Below, piece by piece: positions 1 through 64,000 of a DNA stretch of 64,000 nucleotides; position 1 is the first letter of the stretch, and each line of letters starts with the position of its first letter. This DNA is from Lama guanicoe (lineage: Eukaryota). The notes beneath the pieces were generated by a model. It ran no database searches. It saw nothing but the letters and a program-made list of their open reading frames with translations, and had not been told where the DNA came from. The position numbers and the translations under genes were made by a program. The stretch covers positions 3,871,567 to 3,935,566 of the forward strand of contig MU053629.1 in assembly GCA_013239625.1 (NCBI GenBank), given 5' to 3'.

Positions 1-1215
1 CTCCTTTAGTGTGTATTCACTAGCACTATGACAGATAGGTTGAGCTGGAAGTCGCTGTTAAGAGGAGCTCTATGTTTTAAGCCCGAAAGTTCACCTGGGC
101 AGAAACAAGTTAGAATATTTAGAAAGCAAATGCCTTGATACACAGAGTCCCTGGCATGGGCGGTCCCCCCGCATAGTAATGTCCTTGTCAGCAGGTCCCA
201 CTGTGTGTTTTCTGTAAAGCCTTGGGGCTAAATGAGCGGCTCATATCGTGGGGTAGATGCATGTGGTTTGAAAAGTGGAGATGGCTTGTTCCCTGGGTGT
301 CCTGGCTCCTTCACTGAAGAATCTCAGTGGTGGGGGCGAGTCAGTGTGGCCTTGATAGTACCAGGAGAGCAACTCTGTGGCCCAGGCAGTTCCTGTGGGA
401 CTCAAGCTTTAGAAGTCAGATGGCGTGGCAGTGATGCTAACACATTCCACCCAGTGACCACAAAAAGTGGGTTTTGTTTGGTTTTTGGTAAAGGCCTCTT
501 CCCGGTAGCGTGTGTCAGCATCGTCTGGGAGGTCACTTCTGAGTGTCACAGGCTCTCAGGCATCCAGTCCAGTTTTCTTTCCAGCCCCCTCCCCCCATGG
601 AGTCCAAAGTGCCCCCCGGGTCCCTGCAGCAGTTTGTCCTCCTCAGTCTAGGAGGACAGAGGCTGTCCCATGACGGTGTGTGAGTCAGTGTCTTCACGAG
701 GGCAACTTTCTCATTGTTTTTCCTGAACTATGGTCATCCCGTGGATGGAGGAGCTTTATTTAGCTCTCTGGGGGAACTGGGGAAGTCATCTGGTGAGACT
801 CTGCCTCTTCATAGATGAGGACTCAGGAAGGATGTTCCAAGTGCTGAGCAGAAAGGCTGAGGAGGAAGCCCAGAGCAGCCCCTGATCGGCTCAGCAGCGC
901 CCCAACCTCCCCACCAAGCCTGTCTCCCCATTTTTCTAAGTTAACATAATTGCACTAGGTGCTCAGAAGATCCCTAATTCCATTAGAGAGGAAAAAAGAA
1001 AAAAAATGTTCTTCGTAAATGTAGCACCTGAGTTGGAATGTCAGGCCTCATTGCCCTGAGGAATCGTGGGTCAGCTCGTGATAAAGCTGCAAAACTCAGA
1101 ACACCGTCCAACCGGGCAGAGTGACCATCTGGAACCCAACAGGTGTCCCAGTTATTTTATAAATGGGACAACCGAGACGGAGGAGGAAGTGACACTTGCT
1201 GGTGGTCCTATAGCT

Positions 1216-1536
1216 CAGGGGTCCGCAAACGACAGCCCATCATTTGTATTTGCATGGCTTATGAGCTGAGAATGGATTTTTTTTTAAATGGATTAAAAAA
1301 AAAAAACCAGACCCAAAGGACTATTTCGTGACATGTGAAAATTATATGAAATTCAAATTTCAGTGTCTGTAAAGAAGTTCTGCTGGAACCCAGCCACGCT
1401 CACCCATTTCCGTGTTGTCTGTGGCTGCATCCACAGGACAGCGGCCGAGGGGCATTGCTGCAGGGGAGACCATATGGCTCGCAAAGCTGGAAATATTCAC
1501 CACGGGGCCCTTTGCAGACAAAGTCGTTGACCCCTG
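1216..1536 (+). mobile_element. MER58B (hAT-Charlie MITE) inserted in a MIR
   Basis: TIRs CAGGGGTC...GACCCCTG; diagnostic core gtgaaaattatatgaaattcaaatttcagtgtc; MIR-like flanks at about 1150-1215 and 1537-1600. Confidence 0.85.
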
Positions 1537-2486
1537 AGTTTGCTGACTGGTAGTGGAGGTGGGACTCGAAGCCCGGGCTCCAAATTCCGGATGGGGTTTC
1601 TCCTTAGGGCTCTGAGCGGGGGTCAGAGCAGTTCACCAAGAAACAGGGTTTAGCCTGGGATGTTGCCACTTAGTGGCAGCAAGACTTGGGGCCTGAACGC
1701 TTTGGGAAGATTAGGAATGAAAAGCAAAATTCTTTTGAGAAGTTCCCACCCAGGCCTTGAGGTCACTATTATTATTATTATTTTTAAAGAGATTTTCCAT
1801 CTCTCCTTACTTGCCTCCAAGTGCATTTGACCAGCAGATAACTTTTGCATACCCTGGTAAATAGTCCGAGTTATTTTGTGTATTATTTTGTTTTCCTTGC
1901 ATTGTTACTTTTTCATAAGCACAAAGTCAGTTCACTTCTAAGCTGCTCTGATCACATGAGACCAAAAAACAAAATAAAACTCAGAACCCCCAGTCAGCAT
2001 CTGGCAAGTGGAAAACGAAAAAGAAAGAAAAAGGCCAAATTGGTTAATGTTTCATCTTCCCGCTCCCCAAGCCATGTGGTAAAAGGAAAAAATTCCTACA
2101 GGATGGAATGGAATCCTAGCTAGCTAGGGCCTAAGCTGATGGTTTTTGTCCCAGGAATCCCCAGCTTAGAGCGGCCCTCCTGGAGCCAGGTGGGACAAAG
2201 CTGAGCCAGACCTGGGTTGTGTTGGGTGAGAAGATGAAAAATGCTCCAGGCCTCACAGAAAGAACATGCCTTCTGACTCCTGGACAGACCTGTCCCTTAA
2301 CGGGGACGACGCCCCACTGCTGGTGGCAGAGGCACAGGCCCAGGAAAGACGTTCCAAGTCGGCCTGCCCCACGAGGCATTGGCTTATCCAGCGAGGAGCG
2401 CAGTGTTCAAGAGAAAACAGGGGAAAACAAAATAGCACATGCGATGAAATGCTTGCAACTACTTAAATGACAATGAATGCCTTAAA

Positions 2487-2550
2487 ACACACAGTCACAC
2501 ACACACACACAGTCACACAGTCTCACACACACACACACACACACACAGTC
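2487..2550. repeat. Compound (CA)n microsatellite punctuated by GT
   Basis: acacacagtcacacacac...cacagtc seen directly. Confidence 0.95.
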
Positions 2551-2726
2551 CAGGCATTGCAAGTTGCTCTGTGAGCAGGTTTGGATGTGAGGGAGAAGGG
2601 GAGGGGAGAGAGAAAAAAGTTAATCTGGGAGCAAATGCTTGAGCCCTTAATTAGAGGGGTGTAAGCGGGACAGAGTAAGGATGGCTGGCAACTTGTTAAA
2701 ACAGAGTTTCCCCAGCTCCAGCGGGA

Positions 2727-2750
2727 GGAAGGAAGGAAGGAAGGAAGGAA
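2727..2750. repeat. (GGAA)6 microsatellite
   Basis: Six perfect GGAA units. Confidence 0.95.
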
Positions 2751-3123
2751 GCAAGAAGGAACATCTTCAAGAATTTTAATGGTTGTAATTAAGTACAGCA
2801 ACTATGAATTGTTAACGGGCTTAATTTAACCTTACCCAAGGAGGCTCCAAGTTGCTACTTGCTCGGTCCCCTGAACTTGGGTTATTTCTGTGGTCAGAGC
2901 AATTGAAACTTTTTCAGGTGCCAGGGCTGCAGCCGTCAGCATTTTCCAGGAGAGTTCCAGGGTTGGCTGGCCTGGTCGCGTGTGATCGTGGGATGGGGAG
3001 TGCAGCAGAAAGCTGAGGGGCACACTGCCCTTTGCAAGTGCTTGCATGGTACATATGCACGCGCACACACACATACAGACATGCATGAGAAAGAAGAGAG
3101 GATCAGCCCACAGGCCGACTTAA

Positions 3124-3405
<282 letters not shown>

Positions 3406-3752
3406 TAGGAACAGTCTGTAGGAATGAGACCTCAGGGTGAGAACTTTGCAGGAGCCTGTTGATCACGTGGTGACCATTTGTCTCGTGTGGAAATGATAAA
3501 AACCCAGCAAAACTCTCCATCCCCATTTTTAACAAGGGATCCTCTTCTCCCGGCTACAGAGCGGCGGCGGCAAAATAGATGTGTTTGTTTACATTTATCT
3601 TCGTGGGTTTCTCCTTCTGTCCCCGCTCTGGGGAAGGACTGATGTGAAGGGTTAGAAGAGGGGGAGATGGAGTGGGTAGAATGAGTGTGGGGAAGGGGTC
3701 TAGCAAGTGAGGAATTTTCCAGAGGCTGGTGGTTTTCATGTCCTTCCCTGAG

Positions 3753-3814
3753 CAGTGGATGCTGGGCTTAAGCAGAGAGGTCCTCCACCCGCTGCAGTTC
3801 GGAGATGGCCATAG
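3753..3814 (+). other. SMAD6: Putative cryptic/alternative SMAD6 exon 5' end with in-frame stop (AVDAGLKQRGPPPAAVRRWP*)
   Basis: Pyrimidine tract followed by a GAG|CAG tandem acceptor; in the exon 3 frame it reaches TAG at 3812-3814. Resembles the recalled C-terminus of the MH2-less human isoform. 3' boundary unknown. Confidence 0.5.
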
Positions 3815-5744
3815 GGACCCCCCCTTACATTCTGAGGAATACCTAAATCACGCTTTCCTTAAGAAATGAGAGGTTGGTGGTGCCCTTGGGGGCACTGAGG
3901 GCCAGGAGGGACTCAGGTGTCAAGGTCTTTGGGAGCATGGTGGGTGGGGTGCACTGTGGGGACAGCTGAGGCTCGTGGCCTGGTTCCATGTTGCTTGTGG
4001 TGACAGCCCCTTGGGCTGGAGGTGCTTCCTGAGCCCTTGTGGCTGGATCTCTGTGAGAAGACCCCTGTCTGCTTCTGAACTGTCCTTCCCCGACCCTACA
4101 CCCCTGTCATAATGGCAACGATAGTAATTGTAGCCATTTATTGAGTGTTTACTTTGGGCCACATCCTGTACTAGGTAGGGCCCAGGGTCACAGCGTAGCA
4201 GAGCCATTTGCCGCTATGTCACTGTTTCGTCCCCCACTTCTCTGCAAGGGCCGAATGTGCCTCCGATGAACTTATTTTGCGCGGAGTTCTGTCTGTCATT
4301 CGTGCTGTCCTTTCCCCGTGACTAAGGGTGTCGCGATGTTGGGGGCTCTCAGCTGTCTGGCCAATTCTTGTGGCCAGAGAGCCCTTCCCCACCCATTCCG
4401 TATTCCATCACAGCCACGGGAGATCACAAGAGTATGTCTCTTTTGGAGACACAGAAACAAGAAGCTGGAGCAGGAAGTGACTTGCCCAGGTCGGGGGCAC
4501 AGTGGGGCTCACGGTACAGCTGGTACTGGGGTCCAGGTCTTCTTTGTCCCCTTGTGGTCTCTGGTGGCCCCTCTGATTGGGCCACTTTGTTTTCATCTCT
4601 GCTTTTTGGTCCTACTTGTTAAAAAAGTCTCTCCTTGGAAGACCTAGCCAGATGAACACAAGAAGTTAACGTTTTAATCCATTCTTTTTCCCCTGGGCCT
4701 ATGTGGATGGGAGCCACAAATAATTTTGAAGCAAGAGGCTTTAAAGTATTTCTGACTACATGATTCTCTGTCCCTGCCCACCCTCAGAGCGGATTGAATT
4801 TAAATGGATTGCACTGGCGTCGGTTGTATGGACAGATGGTAATTTTTCAACGTCCCCTCCGCCTTGTTGTTACTCGTGGGACCCGTGTGCCGAGGTGCCT
4901 TACAGATTCATGGTCTCTTCTGATCTGTCACCCCAGGGCTGGCCTGACTTATGGCTCAGGCTGGAAGGAGCAGACCCCAGAGCACTTGCAGGAGGCCCCT
5001 CTGGTTCCCAGGAGAGAGCGCCCCTGGAGGCCGGGAGGTCTCCGCGACCCTGAGGCTGTTGGTTCGGGCTGTCCCTGGGGCCTGGTGGGCCTGTTTGGGA
5101 TTCCCACCTGGTGATCTCAGTCTGTCTTTGGCATGGGCCGCTGTGGCCCTTTACCGTGGATGGGGACTGTGCAGCTCTCATGAGAAAATCTGGCCTCCAG
5201 TGTTTAGAATTCCAAGGGGCTGAAGGAACTGGAGAGGAAGTCTGGGATTTCCTTGTGGGGATTGATTTGTGTGAGCTGCAGGTGGTAGGCGAATAGAGAA
5301 TTCCCCCCATTATGGTCCTCCAGGCCCCTCCCAAGGATGACGTGTGTCTCCTCCTGCTCTGGGGGGCTCACTGCTCAGCTCTTCCATCTTCCTCGTGCTG
5401 TGGGGGAATCTCAGGACCCATGGGTTGGCACTGCCTCCGCCTCCTGGGAGCGCACAGATTTGGGGCTATGGTAGCCGTCCCCCTGGAGGGCAGGCTTGGG
5501 GAGGGAGGCCCTACAGGGTGAGAAGAAGGCCTGGAGGGGTCTCAGTGATGATGAAGGCAAGACTCATCCTGCAAAGATGGGCGGCAGGGTGGTGCCTGAG
5601 GGCAGGGTGGGACGTGAGGTCAGAAAGGTGAGGGGCACAGGCTGGTGGACTGTGTTGGGCCAGACCAGGTGTTTGATGCTCAAGGACAGGTGATAAGGAT
5701 GCTGGTGCTGGTGCTAACATTTATATATTTAACATTTTCCGACA

Positions 5745-5900
5745 TTCACTACTTAGCACTTTGCTAACTTCTCCATCTCACTGACTCCTTACCACAACCC
5801 AGTGAGACAGATGTGATTCCCCCTGTTTTGCAGGTGAGGAAACTGAGGCTTGTTGCCCAGCCAGCTGCCCAAATTCCCACACTAACTGGCACTCTTGGGA
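5745..5900 (-). mobile_element. MIR SINE fragment
   Basis: MIR core cccctgttttgcaggtgaggaaactgaggct. One of many MIRs in the window. Confidence 0.75.
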
Positions 5901-7904
5901 TGGGAGCCTGTGTAGGGTGACTGGCCAGCTCGCCCACCACGTGGGCCCTGTCCAGCGTTCCATAGCGAGGATCCCATCCTCTGCCCTGAGCCACACCTGG
6001 CAAGAGGAGAGTTCAGAAGGAACCTCGGGCAGCCTGTCCTGATCGCAGGACCAGGGATAGGGCTGGGGCCTGGCAAGAGGCACAGGGCTCTGTGCTCATC
6101 TGCCTCCCTTGCAGACACCCAGAGACCACCCCAGGCCCCTCTGTTTCCCTGCATCCCGGAAGCCCGCCATCCCCGAGCGCCTGGCCCCTCTCAGCATCTT
6201 GGGACTGGTGTTGCGGGAGCAGGGTGTCCGCAGCCCCTGGGTGGAGACCGCCCTCGTTTGTCTCACACAGTGGCAGTCTCAGCACCTGGCTTGAGGCTAG
6301 CTATTTTTATCCAGCTCCAAGGTCTCTGCTTCACTTCCCTGTCCTGTTGTTGAGGCCACTTTATGGGGAGTAGGGGGAGTTTTGAGCCACAGCTGGGGGC
6401 AGTTGAGGATGCCTTGGTGGGCAGGGTGGGGGGCAGCAGGAGAGGAGATGGTCTTGTTTCAGCCCTCTGCTGAACGCTTGGCAGAGCCCTCTCATCCGAT
6501 CTCTGTGTCAGCTCCGCATGATCCCCACTAAACAAACAAGAAAACCAAAGCTCCCGAGGACAAGTGACCTCACCAAGGTCACCCTGTGAGGGGCAAGAAC
6601 TCAGAGCTTCCATTAAGTAAAGATACTCTTACAACCTGGAGTCTTCAGTGAGACTTGGGAAAACCTGAAAGCCTAGAAGTCCCTTCTGAGGTACCTTGAG
6701 ATCCTTGACACTCTGGTTTCCTTGCCTTACTGCTGCCCCCTGACTGTCTAAAGCCCTTTCGGTTCATCCTCTTCCTATCTGCAGCATCTCCACCCCTTTC
6801 CCATTCCCTTGATTTCAGTTGAGTTTGAGGAGGAAAGCAAGATGAGCTAGTTAAATTCATACTAAGGTGTGAGTGGCTGGTAGGCAACTCTTCTTGGCAA
6901 TTTAAAGGCAGGATTTCAACAAAATTGCAGGATGAGGGGTCACACGGGCATGGCCATTCTGAGGAGGTCTGGGCTCTCTTGGCTCTAGGCTAGAAGAACA
7001 GAAAGAGCGTGACACAAGGGGCTTTATGCCCTGGATGAAGGAAGGAACAGCCAGGCCAGGCTGAGTGCTGGGTGCTGAGTGAGCTCTGGGCCGTTGACCA
7101 GGGCCTGAAGTGGTGGGTTGCTTTAGAAGCCAGTCCCGCCTGAATCCAGTGCCGTGGGGCTTCGGCACCGACAGGCTTCTTCAGGAGCCAGTGACTCCTC
7201 TCTAATATCCTATTGGGTAACTATTCCAGTGCTTTATTAAGCACCCACTGTATGCAAGGCATGGTATAAGCTGCTTGTCACGAGGACCAGGCTTTCCCTT
7301 TGTCTGACTTTGGATATGTGTACCAGCATCTCAGTCCTTGGAGCCTGCTGGTTTCTCTAGAGCTGCATCAGTGAGGGCGAGCCCCGCATTTTGAAGAGAA
7401 GGCCCAGGGAAGGAAGAGAGCCACACAGGACTATGTGGAGAACTGGGGGCCTTAGCTGGATGTGGGTGTTTTTCCTCCACCAGCCAGATTGTAAGCTCCT
7501 CGAGGGCACAGATCAGTCTCCAGGATTTGTGCATCTGTAGATTGGCAGAGTTTGGGAATAGAGGCTCAGAGAGGTTTGGTGAGTGGCTGGGGGACACACA
7601 GCAAGCAAAAGCAGGTAGAGCCAGGTCACAATCTAGGTGGGTCCACATTGCCTACCCACTTGCCACCTGTCTTCTCATTGGTCCCTGACGAGGTGCCCTT
7701 TGGGGCTGGTGCTGTCTGGTGTGCATTGTCAGTGCCCACAGAACCTAGGAGAGCAGTGAGTTAGTACAGCATCTCTTCCTGCTGCTTCCTGATTCCAGGG
7801 TGGAAGCAGGCTCTCCTCAGATGCCCTGTTCCTCGTTCTCAAACCAGGGTTCTCACTTAGCTCGGTCTCTGTGAGCTGAGCCTCCGTAGCAAGCTTGGCT
7901 GGAA

Positions 7905-8115
7905 AGCATGGGCTGTGCACCAGTGGACCCTGGGTTCAAGTCCCAGCTCTGCCATTTCGTAGTTGCGAGACTTTGGGGCAGCCACTTAACCACTCTGACC
8001 CTCAGTTTAGTCACCTATAAAATGGGGTGGTTGATAACATATCACCTTGTGGTGAGGATGAAATGAGATGATGCCAGGTGAGTCAGCCAAGGCCTGGCAC
8101 ACATGTGGTAGGTGT
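7905..8115 (+). mobile_element. MIR SINE
   Basis: ctgggttcaagtcccagctctgcca...cctcagtttagtcacctataaaatggg...gtgaggatgaaatgagatg. Confidence 0.85.
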
Positions 8116-34296: not shown

Positions 34297-37200
34297 ATTC
34301 ATTCACCCAGTCTTTGTTGGGCTCCCTCCATGACCCAGCCTGACGGTGGCCCTGAGACCCTGTCTCGGCTTCCTGGAGCCGTAGTTTGTTCTCAGCGAAG
34401 GAGAGCCTAACGGGCCCCTGCGCTCTGGAGGGCAAGTGCTGAGATGGGCCCTGTGTGTGTGCTTGTCTGGGTGAGAGTGCTTTGCACATTGTTGAGTTCT
34501 GTTCTGCAGGGGTCAGAGGATGATGGTGGGTGAGCACAGCTCTGCATCAAGGGCTCAGACCATCTTACTCCAGAATCAGAAGACAGGCCCAGTCGGTATC
34601 CCTTGACTGGGCTGTGACCTTGACCTTGCCGGCTGCCTGTGAGCTGTAAGTGGTACCCAGATGCAGGGCTCAGTCTGCTGCCTGGCACAAAGATGCTCAA
34701 GAAATGGTCAAGCCCGCTCCCATCCCTTACAGGCTGATAGTGCGTCCCTCCACCCACCCCACAGGCCATCCTGTGGTCGGCGGGAAGGGATCTGTTGCTG
34801 CCTCTCTCAGAATAGGAAACTGAGGCTCATAGATCGAAGTCCGGGCCTCCTGAGCCCCTGGGCCATGCTGCTTTCCTGACGTGACCGGCGCGTGACAAGG
34901 TCAAAGCAAATCACAGAGCCAGCCTGGGAGCGAGGAGGAGAGAGGCCAGCTGTGTGCCCTGGCTGCGGCACTCACCAGTCTTGAGCAGATCCTTGCATCG
35001 GGGTATTTAGCTCCTGATCTGTGCACACTGCGTCCTCAGCGCCTTGACCGTGCTGGGCACGGAGCGGGATGTTGGGGCCGGAGGGGCTTTGGCGGTCAGC
35101 CAGCCCAAACCTTTGTTTTGTTGGGAAGAGGAAACAGTCCCAGAGACACCACTGACTTCCCCGAGTCACAGTGACTTATTGACGACCAGAACTGCAGCCA
35201 GGTCCTGGCTGGCCAGCGTGCTTTCTTCCTCCTCCTTCCGTAGGAAGCTGCTATGTAAAGTATGTTTTATTATAGTTGCTTATAAACATAATAAAAATCC
35301 CTTACATTTCATGGTGCCTTTAAAAAAAAGTGGTTTACCACCCAGCTTTTCACTTGCTCTTTAGGAAACCCATTGAGGGGCAAACAGGCATCACCCATTT
35401 TCAAGCTGGAGTAATTGAGGCCTGGGAAGCTTGCTGGGCCCTGGAGACTCCCAGGGCTTGGTCTTTCTGCCATACTCAGACTCTGGTGGGTCAGGACGGC
35501 CAGGGACAGTGCCCGAAGCCTTGGCTGTGAAGTACCCTCCCCACTTTCTGACAGATCGCAGACCTTATTGGGGGACGGCTTCTGCGGAGAGAGCCCCAGG
35601 CCAGTGCTCAGAAGGCTGGGGTTCAAGGTCACCTCTAGCCCTGGCCCTGGCTTGCTGTGTCACTGCGGGAAGTCACATCACCTTTGTGCTTTGAGTTCAC
35701 CCCACCAGCTCTGGCCTCTTCCCTCAATGGGAAGCAGACACCTAATTAAAAATTTACAAACAGAAATCTTTATTATAAAAACCTGAACAGATTGCTCTGG
35801 GATCCCAGCAGGGTTGCCTAGGTGAGTGTGGGAAGGCTTCACGGAGGAGGTGACATTTAGCCCTGAGCTGGGGACAGTGAGGGACACTCCAGGGAGAAGG
35901 TGTAGGGGGATGGCAGTAGCGTTTGCCAAACAGGTACCACGTGTGCTGTGTACTGACTTGTTGACTTCTCACGACGAGCACCTGGAAAGGTTGTTTTTTA
36001 ATTATTGCCATTTTGCCAATGAGGTCATTGGGCCCCAGAGAGGGGAGATCGTTTGTTTGGGGTCACATGGAGTGGGTTTAAAGCCCTTGTCTTCCTTCCA
36101 CCTCTCCACAGCCTCCTGTGCCACTGCCACAAAGGCCCGGAGGCCTGATCAGACCTTCCCACCACTTTCAGGATTTGAGATCTGCAAAAGGTGATGAGGC
36201 TGAGTGGTCCTGTAAAACAGTGTGCGCAGGGTGGGAGTGGCCATCCCAGTGCCCACCTCAGTACCAGCAGCCTCGTCCCCTGCCCTGCCCGTGTATCATC
36301 CCAGCTGCGGGATCTGGGCAGAGTTGGGCCTTCTGTGAGTCAGCCATCTCCAGGGGGCCCCAGGGGCTCCTCCCTGTTCCCAGATCCTTCAGTACAGCCC
36401 CCCAGGCACCGTCTCTCCACCTCTGCCCTCTTCTTGCCTCGGCTCCCTGGGGAGGCCTCCGACCTGCACCAGGGCCAGGCAGGCATGGCCAGGGTGGCCT
36501 CGGCGTGCCTGCTCCCCTCCCAAATCTCTAGGTGGCCTTTTTAAGGGTCCTGGCTTGTGGGCCTGGAACATAAGGGGTCACTCAGCTCAAGATTTCATTG
36601 CACAGATGGGGTGGCCGAGGCTCTGAGAAGGGGAGGGACTTGCATAAGGGCACACTGTATTAGGGGCTGGGCCAGAGCTCCTGGTGATCCCTGGCGAGGA
36701 GTGACCGTGGTGGACCCTGTGGCCCTCCGCCACGCCGGGATGGCTGGCGGAATCCTTTATGTGCTCCCCGCCTTACACAGCTCGGGCCCCTGACCCCAAA
36801 GAGCCTCACGAACTTGAGATGGAAACTTAGAATCTTTTTCTCCTCTTGCTGCAAGGGCTTCATTACTCTGTCGGAGATTTGTGGGGACAGGGCCTTGCTG
36901 GGGGAAAGCGCACCAGCCGGGTGACGCTGGGCCTCCGTTCCCTCGCCCAGCTTCCTGGCACTGCCCGCCTTCCCCATCGGAGGGCGCTAATGGCAGCTTG
37001 TGGGATGCTCTGGAGTTTCAAGCTCTGGGGTCAAATGTCAGCCCCGCCACACTCACCGTGGGTGGTCATGAGCTCATTTGTCCTCCTCTGTAAAAGCAGG
37101 GGTGATGGTAGCCCTACCTCAGGGGGCTGAGTTAATAACACACAGGGAGGAGATGCCCCATGAATGGGCGATATTGTTATCTGGTCCTCAGAGACAAGGG

Positions 37201-49684: not shown

Positions 49685-52138
49685 ATCTACTCACCTCCCA
49701 GGATTGCTCTGTGTTAAATGAGATGGGGGTGTGTGGATGGACAGCACCCAAGAGTAGCTGGATTCCCACACGATGACTGGAGGCGAGGCCTCAGTCATGG
49801 CAGGATCATCACTTAGCAGAGCTCTGCTAGTGTTTGCTGGGCCCACGCGTGCCAGGTGTGTGCTGCTTGCTAAGGGAGACACGACTGATAATTTAACCTC
49901 CTGCCCCAAGAGCCCCTTCAAGCTTCCCTGTGATTCGGGGAAGGCACTCCTCCCTCCCCGTATCCACACAGGTCCCTGTGGCTGCAAACAGCCATCCGGA
50001 GCCTTCTAGAAGGCACTTGGGTCTTGCCATCGGTGGGGCTGAGCCCACATGTCTCCCCGGAGCCCCTTGTCTTTCCTGGAAGACACTAAGGATTATGGGT
50101 TGGATTGTGGCACATAAACCTCATGCCCCTCTCAGCCTTGGGAACAGAAGCCCAAACAGAAAGCACAGCTGACAGTTGTAATGAACTCTCCTGCATTATT
50201 GCTGCGCTGACTTGAGTTGTGCAGTGTGTATCCAGACAGGGGCTAAAGAATTACTTTGAGAAATAGGAAGCCATTACTGAACTGGCAGCTGGCTTTCCCA
50301 AGACGCTTGGCAGGAGGCAGGGACAGTGGGAAGGAGTACCTTTGGCCTCAGCAGACGTGGATGAGTCCTGATCCTGCCTTCTGGTTAGCCCGGTGGGCAG
50401 TCACCCCGCCTCTCTGAGCTTTATGTTCCATAACCTGAAACGGGATCATTTATGAATGGGCTGGGAGAATTGGAAGATCCCCCACCCTCCACAGTTAGAA
50501 ACAGCATCGCAAGGTCACCTTGGATAGGGGTAGCGTCTCCTTCTTGGCTTGGGCTACAGGGGCGGTGGGAACCAAGCTTGGCCTCCTTTTGCTTTGGAAA
50601 CCGGTCTTGGTCTTGGACTTGAGGCTTGGGGCACTGTGGGGCTGTGTCTACCTGCCAGCCTGATGGGATGGGTGGACTGCCTGGCCCCCTCTCTTCTCCC
50701 CACCTTCGGCTCCAGATCAAACAAGCCACCCCTTTGCAGGCAGCTTGGAGCTTGGGCGTGGACGGTGTGTAGTAGCTTCAGCCGCGCACAGTAGCGCAGC
50801 CACGAACAGGGGACCGGTTCGCAAGGGTGAGCCGCTGCCAAGCCCTAGGTCATTTTGCAGCATTTTTGCAGGGAACGTTTAAATCTCATGTTACTGTGTC
50901 CTTTACAGCAAATATGAGTATTTATGCTCAATGATCTCTCCAGTCAATATTAGCCTTTTGCTTATTATAAAAGCCCTCCTGTTTGTTCCAGAAATGAGTA
51001 AGAGTGATCCAGGCAACCCTCCCTTTAAGAAAATCCAGTACGTAGGACTCTGCATTCACAAAAGAGGCGTGGATTATGTACCTTTGTGTTACAAAAGGTT
51101 ATTTTAAAGGGAAGGATTTAATGCAAGGATTACTTTTCAATTGAATGCCCCCAGCCCTGGGACCTTGATTTGGGGGAGTTTAATCCCAAAGTGCGTCTTG
51201 AATGTAAATAAGGCAGGTGTATTTGACTTGCAAAGCTCACGTGACACTGACTCGTTAGTAAATAACAACAGGCCGGTGCAAGACGAGGCTTATTTTTGAG
51301 AACTTTGCAAATAAGGAAAACGAGCTCCCCACCCCGTTTTTGGCTCTTCCCTATTCTGTTCACCTTCATAGACTTAGCAAGCCGGAGACATGAAACCCAC
51401 CCCCAGTGCCAGATGAGATGAGTCTGGGCTTTAGGCAATTTTTTTTTTTAAGCCACTGAAACAGGCCTGGCACGTAGCAAGCTCGTCTGGCATTCCACTG
51501 GCCGGGCTACATCCTGAGGGTCAGCCAGCAGGGATGCAGGATGCCACTTCTCCCTGTCGGTGTCCTGGCCTCTGAGCCTCAGTAGTGTCATCTGTTCCGT
51601 GGGAACAGTTCTGCTGCGTCTTTTTCACACGTGGGGAAAGCCCGATGATTTCCCAAGTGCCCTCCCAGCTCTCGAATATGAAATTCCATCCCAGTCCTGC
51701 TGTTGAGAGCACCATCGTCAGCCAGTGTGGTGCCGGGCCCTGGGGGAGGAGGGGCAGAGGTGAGTGACGCCTCATCCCAGGTCAGCCTGCTCGCAGGTGG
51801 GTGCGGTGGAGACACATGCCCTCCTGGTGACAGCATCAAAGAGTGTCACAGAGGAGGGGCCCTGTGAGTCAGACCCAGGCTTTTTAAAGGAGGTGACATC
51901 AGGGTCTTGACGGTTGGGTAAGGGTCTGACAGACTTTGGGGGATGAGGAAGGAAACGTGTATTCATCAAGTGCCAGTTACTGCTGTTAGGCCCCTTGTGA
52001 CCCCCACCCCCACCCCACCCACGCCTTCCAGTGAGTTACGCCGGCTTCATGGGTGTCCAGCCTGTGCCCCACCCAGGGCCCCCGCGCAGAAGGGGACTCC
52101 GCTCAATTTAATGCTCTTCTTTCACCATTGAAACCCTG

Positions 52139-63427: not shown

Positions 63428-64000
<573 letters not shown>

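Follow-up and report, generated by a model that had tools for sequence, protein, structure and literature searches.

A predicted stop-containing exon in SMAD6 intron 3 as a likely counterpart of the human SMAD6 poison exon

A stop-containing segment shortly downstream of exon 3 of SMAD6 raises the question of whether it is an exon at all and, if so, whether its inclusion yields a protein lacking the MH2 domain, an NMD substrate or a splicing switch on a BMP feedback inhibitor. We analysed a window of 64 kb (64,000 nucleotides) from Lama guanicoe, and the sequence and its translation place the 3' part of mammalian SMAD6 on the + strand, on which all features described here lie. Exon 3 (3149..3226, 78 nt, phase 1) ends in GEFS plus one base and is followed by the donor CAG/GTTGGC at 3227; an identical exon 3 peptide is present in retrieved SMAD6 proteins. 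The last exon, exon 4 (63549..64000), encodes the MH2 domain and runs off the window. Its protein showed 95–100% identity to most mammalian SMAD6 matches, and the search returned 289 proteins at E <= 1e-60; among the 120 listed, every named mammalian protein was SMAD6. Intron 3 spans 60,322 nt in the window and 64,498 nt in human, the latter from coordinates in the supplement of PMC10123112.

The candidate exon is preceded by a polypyrimidine tract (3733..3749) with 14 pyrimidines of 16 before 3753, a quality equalled by 1.4% of intron 3 AG sites. An AG-free zone of 26 nt leads to the tandem (NAGNAG) acceptor GAG/CAG at 3750..3755 (G3750-A-G3752 and C3753-A-G3755), which would start the exon at either 3753 or 3756 in one frame. 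Tract and acceptor lie where the initial annotation had put them. Its distance of 527 nt after exon 3 gives the position correctly as an offset, the intron from exon 3 to 3753 being itself 526 nt long. Joining exon 3 at 3753 continues the protein as AVDAGLKQRGPPPAAVRRWP, 20 residues that end at the TAG at 3812..3814, and joining at 3756 removes the first residue and leaves the frame and this stop unchanged; translation thus bore out the proposed continuation of the SMAD6 frame for either AG. More in-frame stops follow at 3833 and 3860, and stops are present in all three frames of the candidate exon. The in-frame stop alone is unsurprising, because 2667 of 5000 random 120-nt intron stretches carry one that is 50 nt or more from their end. 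A recursive splice site was considered and rejected, since neither AG is directly followed by GT (3753 starts CAGT and 3756 starts TGGA). A motif scan found no AATAAA or ATTAAA in 3227-8000, and hence no sign of a terminal exon nearby. When the window was compared with itself, the stretch 3650-3960 had five matches elsewhere, all at E 0.66, and a control stretch had 12, the best at E 0.002; the comparison was made without a repeat library.

We then compared the predicted tail with those of database proteins. The MH2-less human isoform that the initial annotation had described does exist: isoform D (UniProt O43541-4, CAP20377.1, P0227) has 338 aa and a 21-aa tail. We take it to be the Smad6B of Konrad et al. 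2008 (PMID 19032685). Cluster look-ups also retrieved two predicted models, chimpanzee 'isoform 3' (P0233) and Weddell seal XP_006750011.1 (RefSeq, P0216), which show DNA and not splicing. After GEFS, the tails read AADAGIGSRGNRGLESSVPCS in human, AADAGGSRGNRGLESSVPCS in chimpanzee and AVDAGLGSRENPSLESPKPLQ in Weddell seal. Of 4588 AG sites in intron 3, 3753 ranked first against the human tail (score 31, next 19, over 10 residues) and against the seal tail (29, next 20); against the chimpanzee tail, which is one residue short, it ranked only 4th and 11th. As had been claimed, six of the first ten residues of the candidate tail are identical to human, though the RG pair that accounts for two of these (residues 9 and 10) probably matches by coincidence, out of frame, because the seal-based alignment shifts the frame after codon 6.

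The candidate shares with human isoform D its insertion after GEFS, its phase, a stop after about 20 residues and the loss of MH2, and it sits at the corresponding position in intron 3, with 526 nt between it and exon 3 as against 510 nt in human. It differs in tail length (20 aa against 21 in human), in having no identity past residue 10, in reaching its stop in another frame and in length, being shorter than human by about 16 nt as far as the human stop. The seal model shares tail residues 1-6 (AVDAGL) with the window and gave the best back-translation fit but, unlike the window, keeps the human frame for about 16 codons and is identical to human at 12 of 19 residues; it is a partial predicted model. 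Judged from the first rank among AG sites and the matching intron position, the segment 3753-3872 is very probably orthologous to the human isoform D exon, in support of the orthology proposed at the outset. A search for orthologous DNA with the 17-nt acceptor motif gave 119 metagenome loci in the 38 of 64 parts scanned; none extends beyond 21 nt, and all are chance matches.

In human the exon is not new: it gives rise to the Smad6B isoform, and two published catalogues class it among NMD exons. Tables ST2 and ST7 of PMC10123112 give it as an annotated poison exon with a stop within it (hg19 chr15 67009347-67009478, between 67008836 and 67073335), 132 nt long and 510 nt after exon 3. Supplementary Data 2 of PMC7347940 lists hg38 chr15:66717012-66717140 as EI_NMD, which is 129 nt on inclusive coordinates, as the adjacent SCN1A rows show; to be entered in that table, an exon needed three or more junction read pairs and an inclusion of at least 3%. 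If the two forms share one donor, they start 3 nt apart, which would fit a tandem acceptor in human too, and from its position and internal stop the catalogued exon presumably encodes the isoform D tail. Like the human exon, the one predicted here contains its stop and has a length that is a multiple of three (120/117 nt against 132/129 nt). Inclusion is documented in human, whereas the exon in the window is predicted from sequence, and the stop lies 67 nt (computed) before the junction in human and 58 nt (predicted) in the window. No row for a SMAD6 exon was present in the supplements of PMC11632617 or in the supplementary files available for PMC11387194, and the available supplement of PMC13078869 holds SMAD6 only as a gene-count row, with no exon row. 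The SMAD6-deficiency review PMC9681871 makes no mention of isoforms, splicing or NMD. A full-text search of mainly open-access literature found no paper testing this exon among the matches listed.

The 3' end of the exon was estimated from peptide bookkeeping, by subtracting 16 nt from the human length of 132 nt; only the back-translated tails were aligned, and the end does not come from a DNA alignment. This gives an end at about 3868, and the closest GT, within 5 nt, is at 3873. The predicted exon would therefore span 3753..3872 (120 nt, or 117 nt from the distal AG), with the predicted donor GAG/GTTGGT at 3873..3878, which resembles that of exon 3. On an approximate matrix applied to 3334 intron GT sites, 3873 scored at the 91st percentile and the exon 3 donor at the 87th. 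The donors at about 3917, 4000 or 4022 that had been proposed earlier (86th, 84th and 88th percentiles on the same approximate matrix) give exons of 164, 247 and 269 nt against an expected length of about 116 nt; these misfit the human exon, and we rejected them as orthologous donors in favor of 3873 as the likely one. The GT at 3940 scored higher (97th percentile on that matrix) but gives 187 nt; it could still serve as an extra donor. A usable predicted acceptor and donor thus flank the intronic segment, with the tandem AG and the 14/16 tract on one side and, by the approximate matrix, a GT scoring like the exon 3 donor on the other.

A stop is expected to elicit NMD when 50-55 nt or more separate it from the last junction downstream. 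With the predicted donor at 3873 (junction 3872/3873), the distance is 58 nt, which lies above this range though close to the threshold, and it becomes greater with any later donor. Lim (PMC7347940) set the threshold at 50 nt. Of the earlier proposal of a poison exon and NMD substrate, the geometry is supported, with an in-frame TAG 58 nt before the predicted junction, and the proposed donors are not.

The peptide has fared differently from the splice sites. Frameshift-aware alignment of the back-translated tails to the window gave a total gap of 16 nt against human and 17 nt against seal, consistent with a 2-nt loss after codon 6 and a 14-nt loss about 10 nt later (3769..3780) that would have shifted the frame relative to both. 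The alignment with seal is compatible over the whole of the exon's first 18 nt and, past the 2-nt gap, over the following 10 nt. Among residues 11-20 of the candidate tail, none of ten matches human and one of ten matches seal, whereas human and seal share five of ten; the loss of tail identity probably came about through the frameshift after codon 6. The ends of the human and seal tails appear to fall in the window's two remaining frames, a pattern of 'three lineages, three frames' that we offer as a suggestion only; the distal block alone was not significant (158, 149 and 54 of 300 controls; 488, 977 and, jointly, 191 of 3000).

This divergence bears on the possibility that the transcript escapes decay and yields a functional MH2-less protein of the Smad6B kind, an N-terminal fragment of SMAD6 that would interfere with the full-length protein. 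Smad6B is described, in a passage of PMC4990216 citing Konrad 2008, as a human isoform with an alternate exon 4 and without MH2, PMC4990216 itself deals with a truncated Smad7 variant, and isoform D is present in UniProt. The stop is close to the NMD threshold, and a fragment could act regardless of its tail. Yet a conserved isoform would have a frame and tail peptide common across species, and neither was found; the diverged tail argues against a conserved MH2-less protein, and the initial suggestion of such a product does not hold up as a conserved one. Moreover, the GENCODE-based table ST2 of PMC10123112 labels the human transcript as NMD, and the isolated N-terminal domains of Smad6 and Smad7 are reported in PMC4990216 to be unable to repress signalling. 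We regard a functional protein product as very improbable.

Could the exon instead be a regulated switch, in which BMP signalling or a splicing factor alters inclusion and thereby sets SMAD6 dose in BMP feedback? Human, seal and the window have its geometry in common but not its peptide, which is what one would expect if the stop were all that mattered, and human inclusion was above 3% in Lim's screen (PMC7347940). Against this, the human GTEx row in PMC10123112 is marked significant = 0, with a spread in inclusion between quartiles of 0.0085 (less than one point) and with expression higher in the high-inclusion quartile (+0.58, z +9.4, where the threshold is z < -5, testis excluded). The low spread and the absence of inverse coupling to expression argue against a switch, and the splicing switch on a BMP feedback inhibitor envisaged by the initial annotation is not borne out by this row. 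True inclusion is hidden by NMD, a bias that PMC10123112 itself points out, so the GTEx result lowers the probability of a switch and leaves some room for it.

Plain intron just behind exon 3 aligned to pig and degu read-through peptides at a level that none of 500 controls reached for either species (for vole, 18 of 500 did), and the exon aligned to the human and seal tails at levels matched by 6 and 7 of 500. In this peptide-level proxy, which is rough since the intron read-through peptides are longer, the exon showed no excess conservation over neighbouring intron. The candidate exon region also showed no unusual or stable RNA fold (z -0.40). Like SCN1A exon 20X/20N (PMC7347940) and the SR-protein poison exons, the candidate would be a cassette whose premature stop links splicing to decay. 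Regulated poison exons such as SCN1A 20X/20N reach up to 96% human-mouse identity and up to 89% inclusion under NMD block (PMC7347940), whereas the SMAD6 candidate carries indels and, in the peptide-level proxy, no excess conservation. No paper testing regulation was among the literature matches listed. We consider a regulated switch unlikely. A boreoeutherian-wide SMAD6 poison exon that keeps its splice sites and stop, drifts in frame and is included under regulation to set the dose of the BMP inhibitor would be similarly improbable.

Public RNA did not discriminate. Of 24 listed runs, 14 were RNA or guessed RNA (5 on record as RNA) and held the stretch 3000-4400, and their share of its 145 words was 0.28-0.38 in 13 runs and 0.17 in one. 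The share expected is 0.035 from exon 3 by itself and 0.10 from exon 3 with the poison exon; shares above 0.10 must come from intronic RNA, from DNA or from a related species, and are uninformative on inclusion either way.

We favor the reading, and hold it somewhat more probable than not, that 3753-3872 is a minor unproductive cassette exon, occasionally included and then degraded, and probably orthologous to the poison exon of human SMAD6. Its acceptor, predicted donor and stop are all present despite the frameshift. The CAG acceptor of a tandem pair is generally likelier to be used than GAG. During transcription of the 60-kb intron, the spliceosome may now and then pick the tandem acceptor together with the weak donor at 3873. 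The included stop, 58 nt before the exon 4 junction, would bring the mRNA under the 50-nt rule and lead to its degradation. The outcome would be a slight but steady drain on SMAD6 output, with neither a regulated switch nor a stable MH2-less protein.

A silent remnant, orthologous DNA that is no longer spliced in this lineage and survives as a slow-evolving part of intron 3, is a real if lesser possibility. Flanking intron aligns as well as the exon, three unrelated database exon models also map into intron 3, and the segment has two inferred deletions, a weak donor and GAG at the proximal acceptor. Tails of this kind occur in only 3 of 388 stored proteins (human, chimpanzee and seal), none from transcript assembly, but protein databases under-represent NMD isoforms by design. 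Retention of the tract and both AGs, of the first 18 nt and of a GT no more than 5 nt from the predicted end speaks against a remnant.

To what is known of the human exon, the window adds a corrected exon end and evidence for a tail that can drift freely. A non-primate orthologue that keeps splice anatomy and stop, and not the peptide, favors a view of Smad6B as an unproductive transcript over a protein isoform. The predicted junctions can be given exactly (3226-3753 or 3226-3756, and 3872-63549). If inclusion were high under NMD block and responsive to BMP, the exon would offer a way to adjust SMAD6 dose; this is unlikely, as published human data point to low, uncoupled inclusion. Were regulation nonetheless to apply, blocking the exon would raise SMAD6 in haploinsufficient disease. 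SMAD6 is linked to familial bicuspid aortic valve in Lim's table (PMC7347940), and SMAD6 deficiency is reviewed in PMC9681871.

Several further features of the locus were observed. Parts of intron 3 match pig, warthog, donkey and degu peptides that were read from intron DNA. The first 180 nt of the intron (3227-3410) align beyond chance to pig and degu read-through peptides, and the pig entries P0128 and P0210 (Logan assemblies) run through the exon 3 donor, which may point to a retained intron or to a conserved element. Several putative lineage-specific cryptic exons lie deeper in the intron. SMAD6 model P0229 has an in-frame insert of 22 residues, and positions 51695-51759 match it at 19 of 21; here AG to GT (GAG/GTGAGT) measures 65 nt, and inclusion would change the frame. 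The extra exon of warthog model P0208 starts at 35365 (14 of 15 residues, a TTTAG acceptor and a good tract), and that of donkey model P0125 at 36856, with an AAG acceptor.

Within exon 3, 12 nt inside its end, an alternative donor CAG/GTGAAT at 3215 scores at the 99th percentile, above the regular donor. Its use would remove GEFS in frame, and GEFS is absent from 10 of 239 retrieved proteins that have exon 3. At 63549-63556, residue 2 of exon 4 is Thr, as against Ala in 198 of 199 retrieved motif-matching proteins. Upstream of exon 3 lie CA-rich and GGAA microsatellites (2490-2550 and 2725-2760). The human circular RNA hsa_circ_0036005 (exons 2-3, hg19 chr15:67004005-67008836), filed under NR_027654 in a table of PMC6603403, ends at the exon 3 donor.
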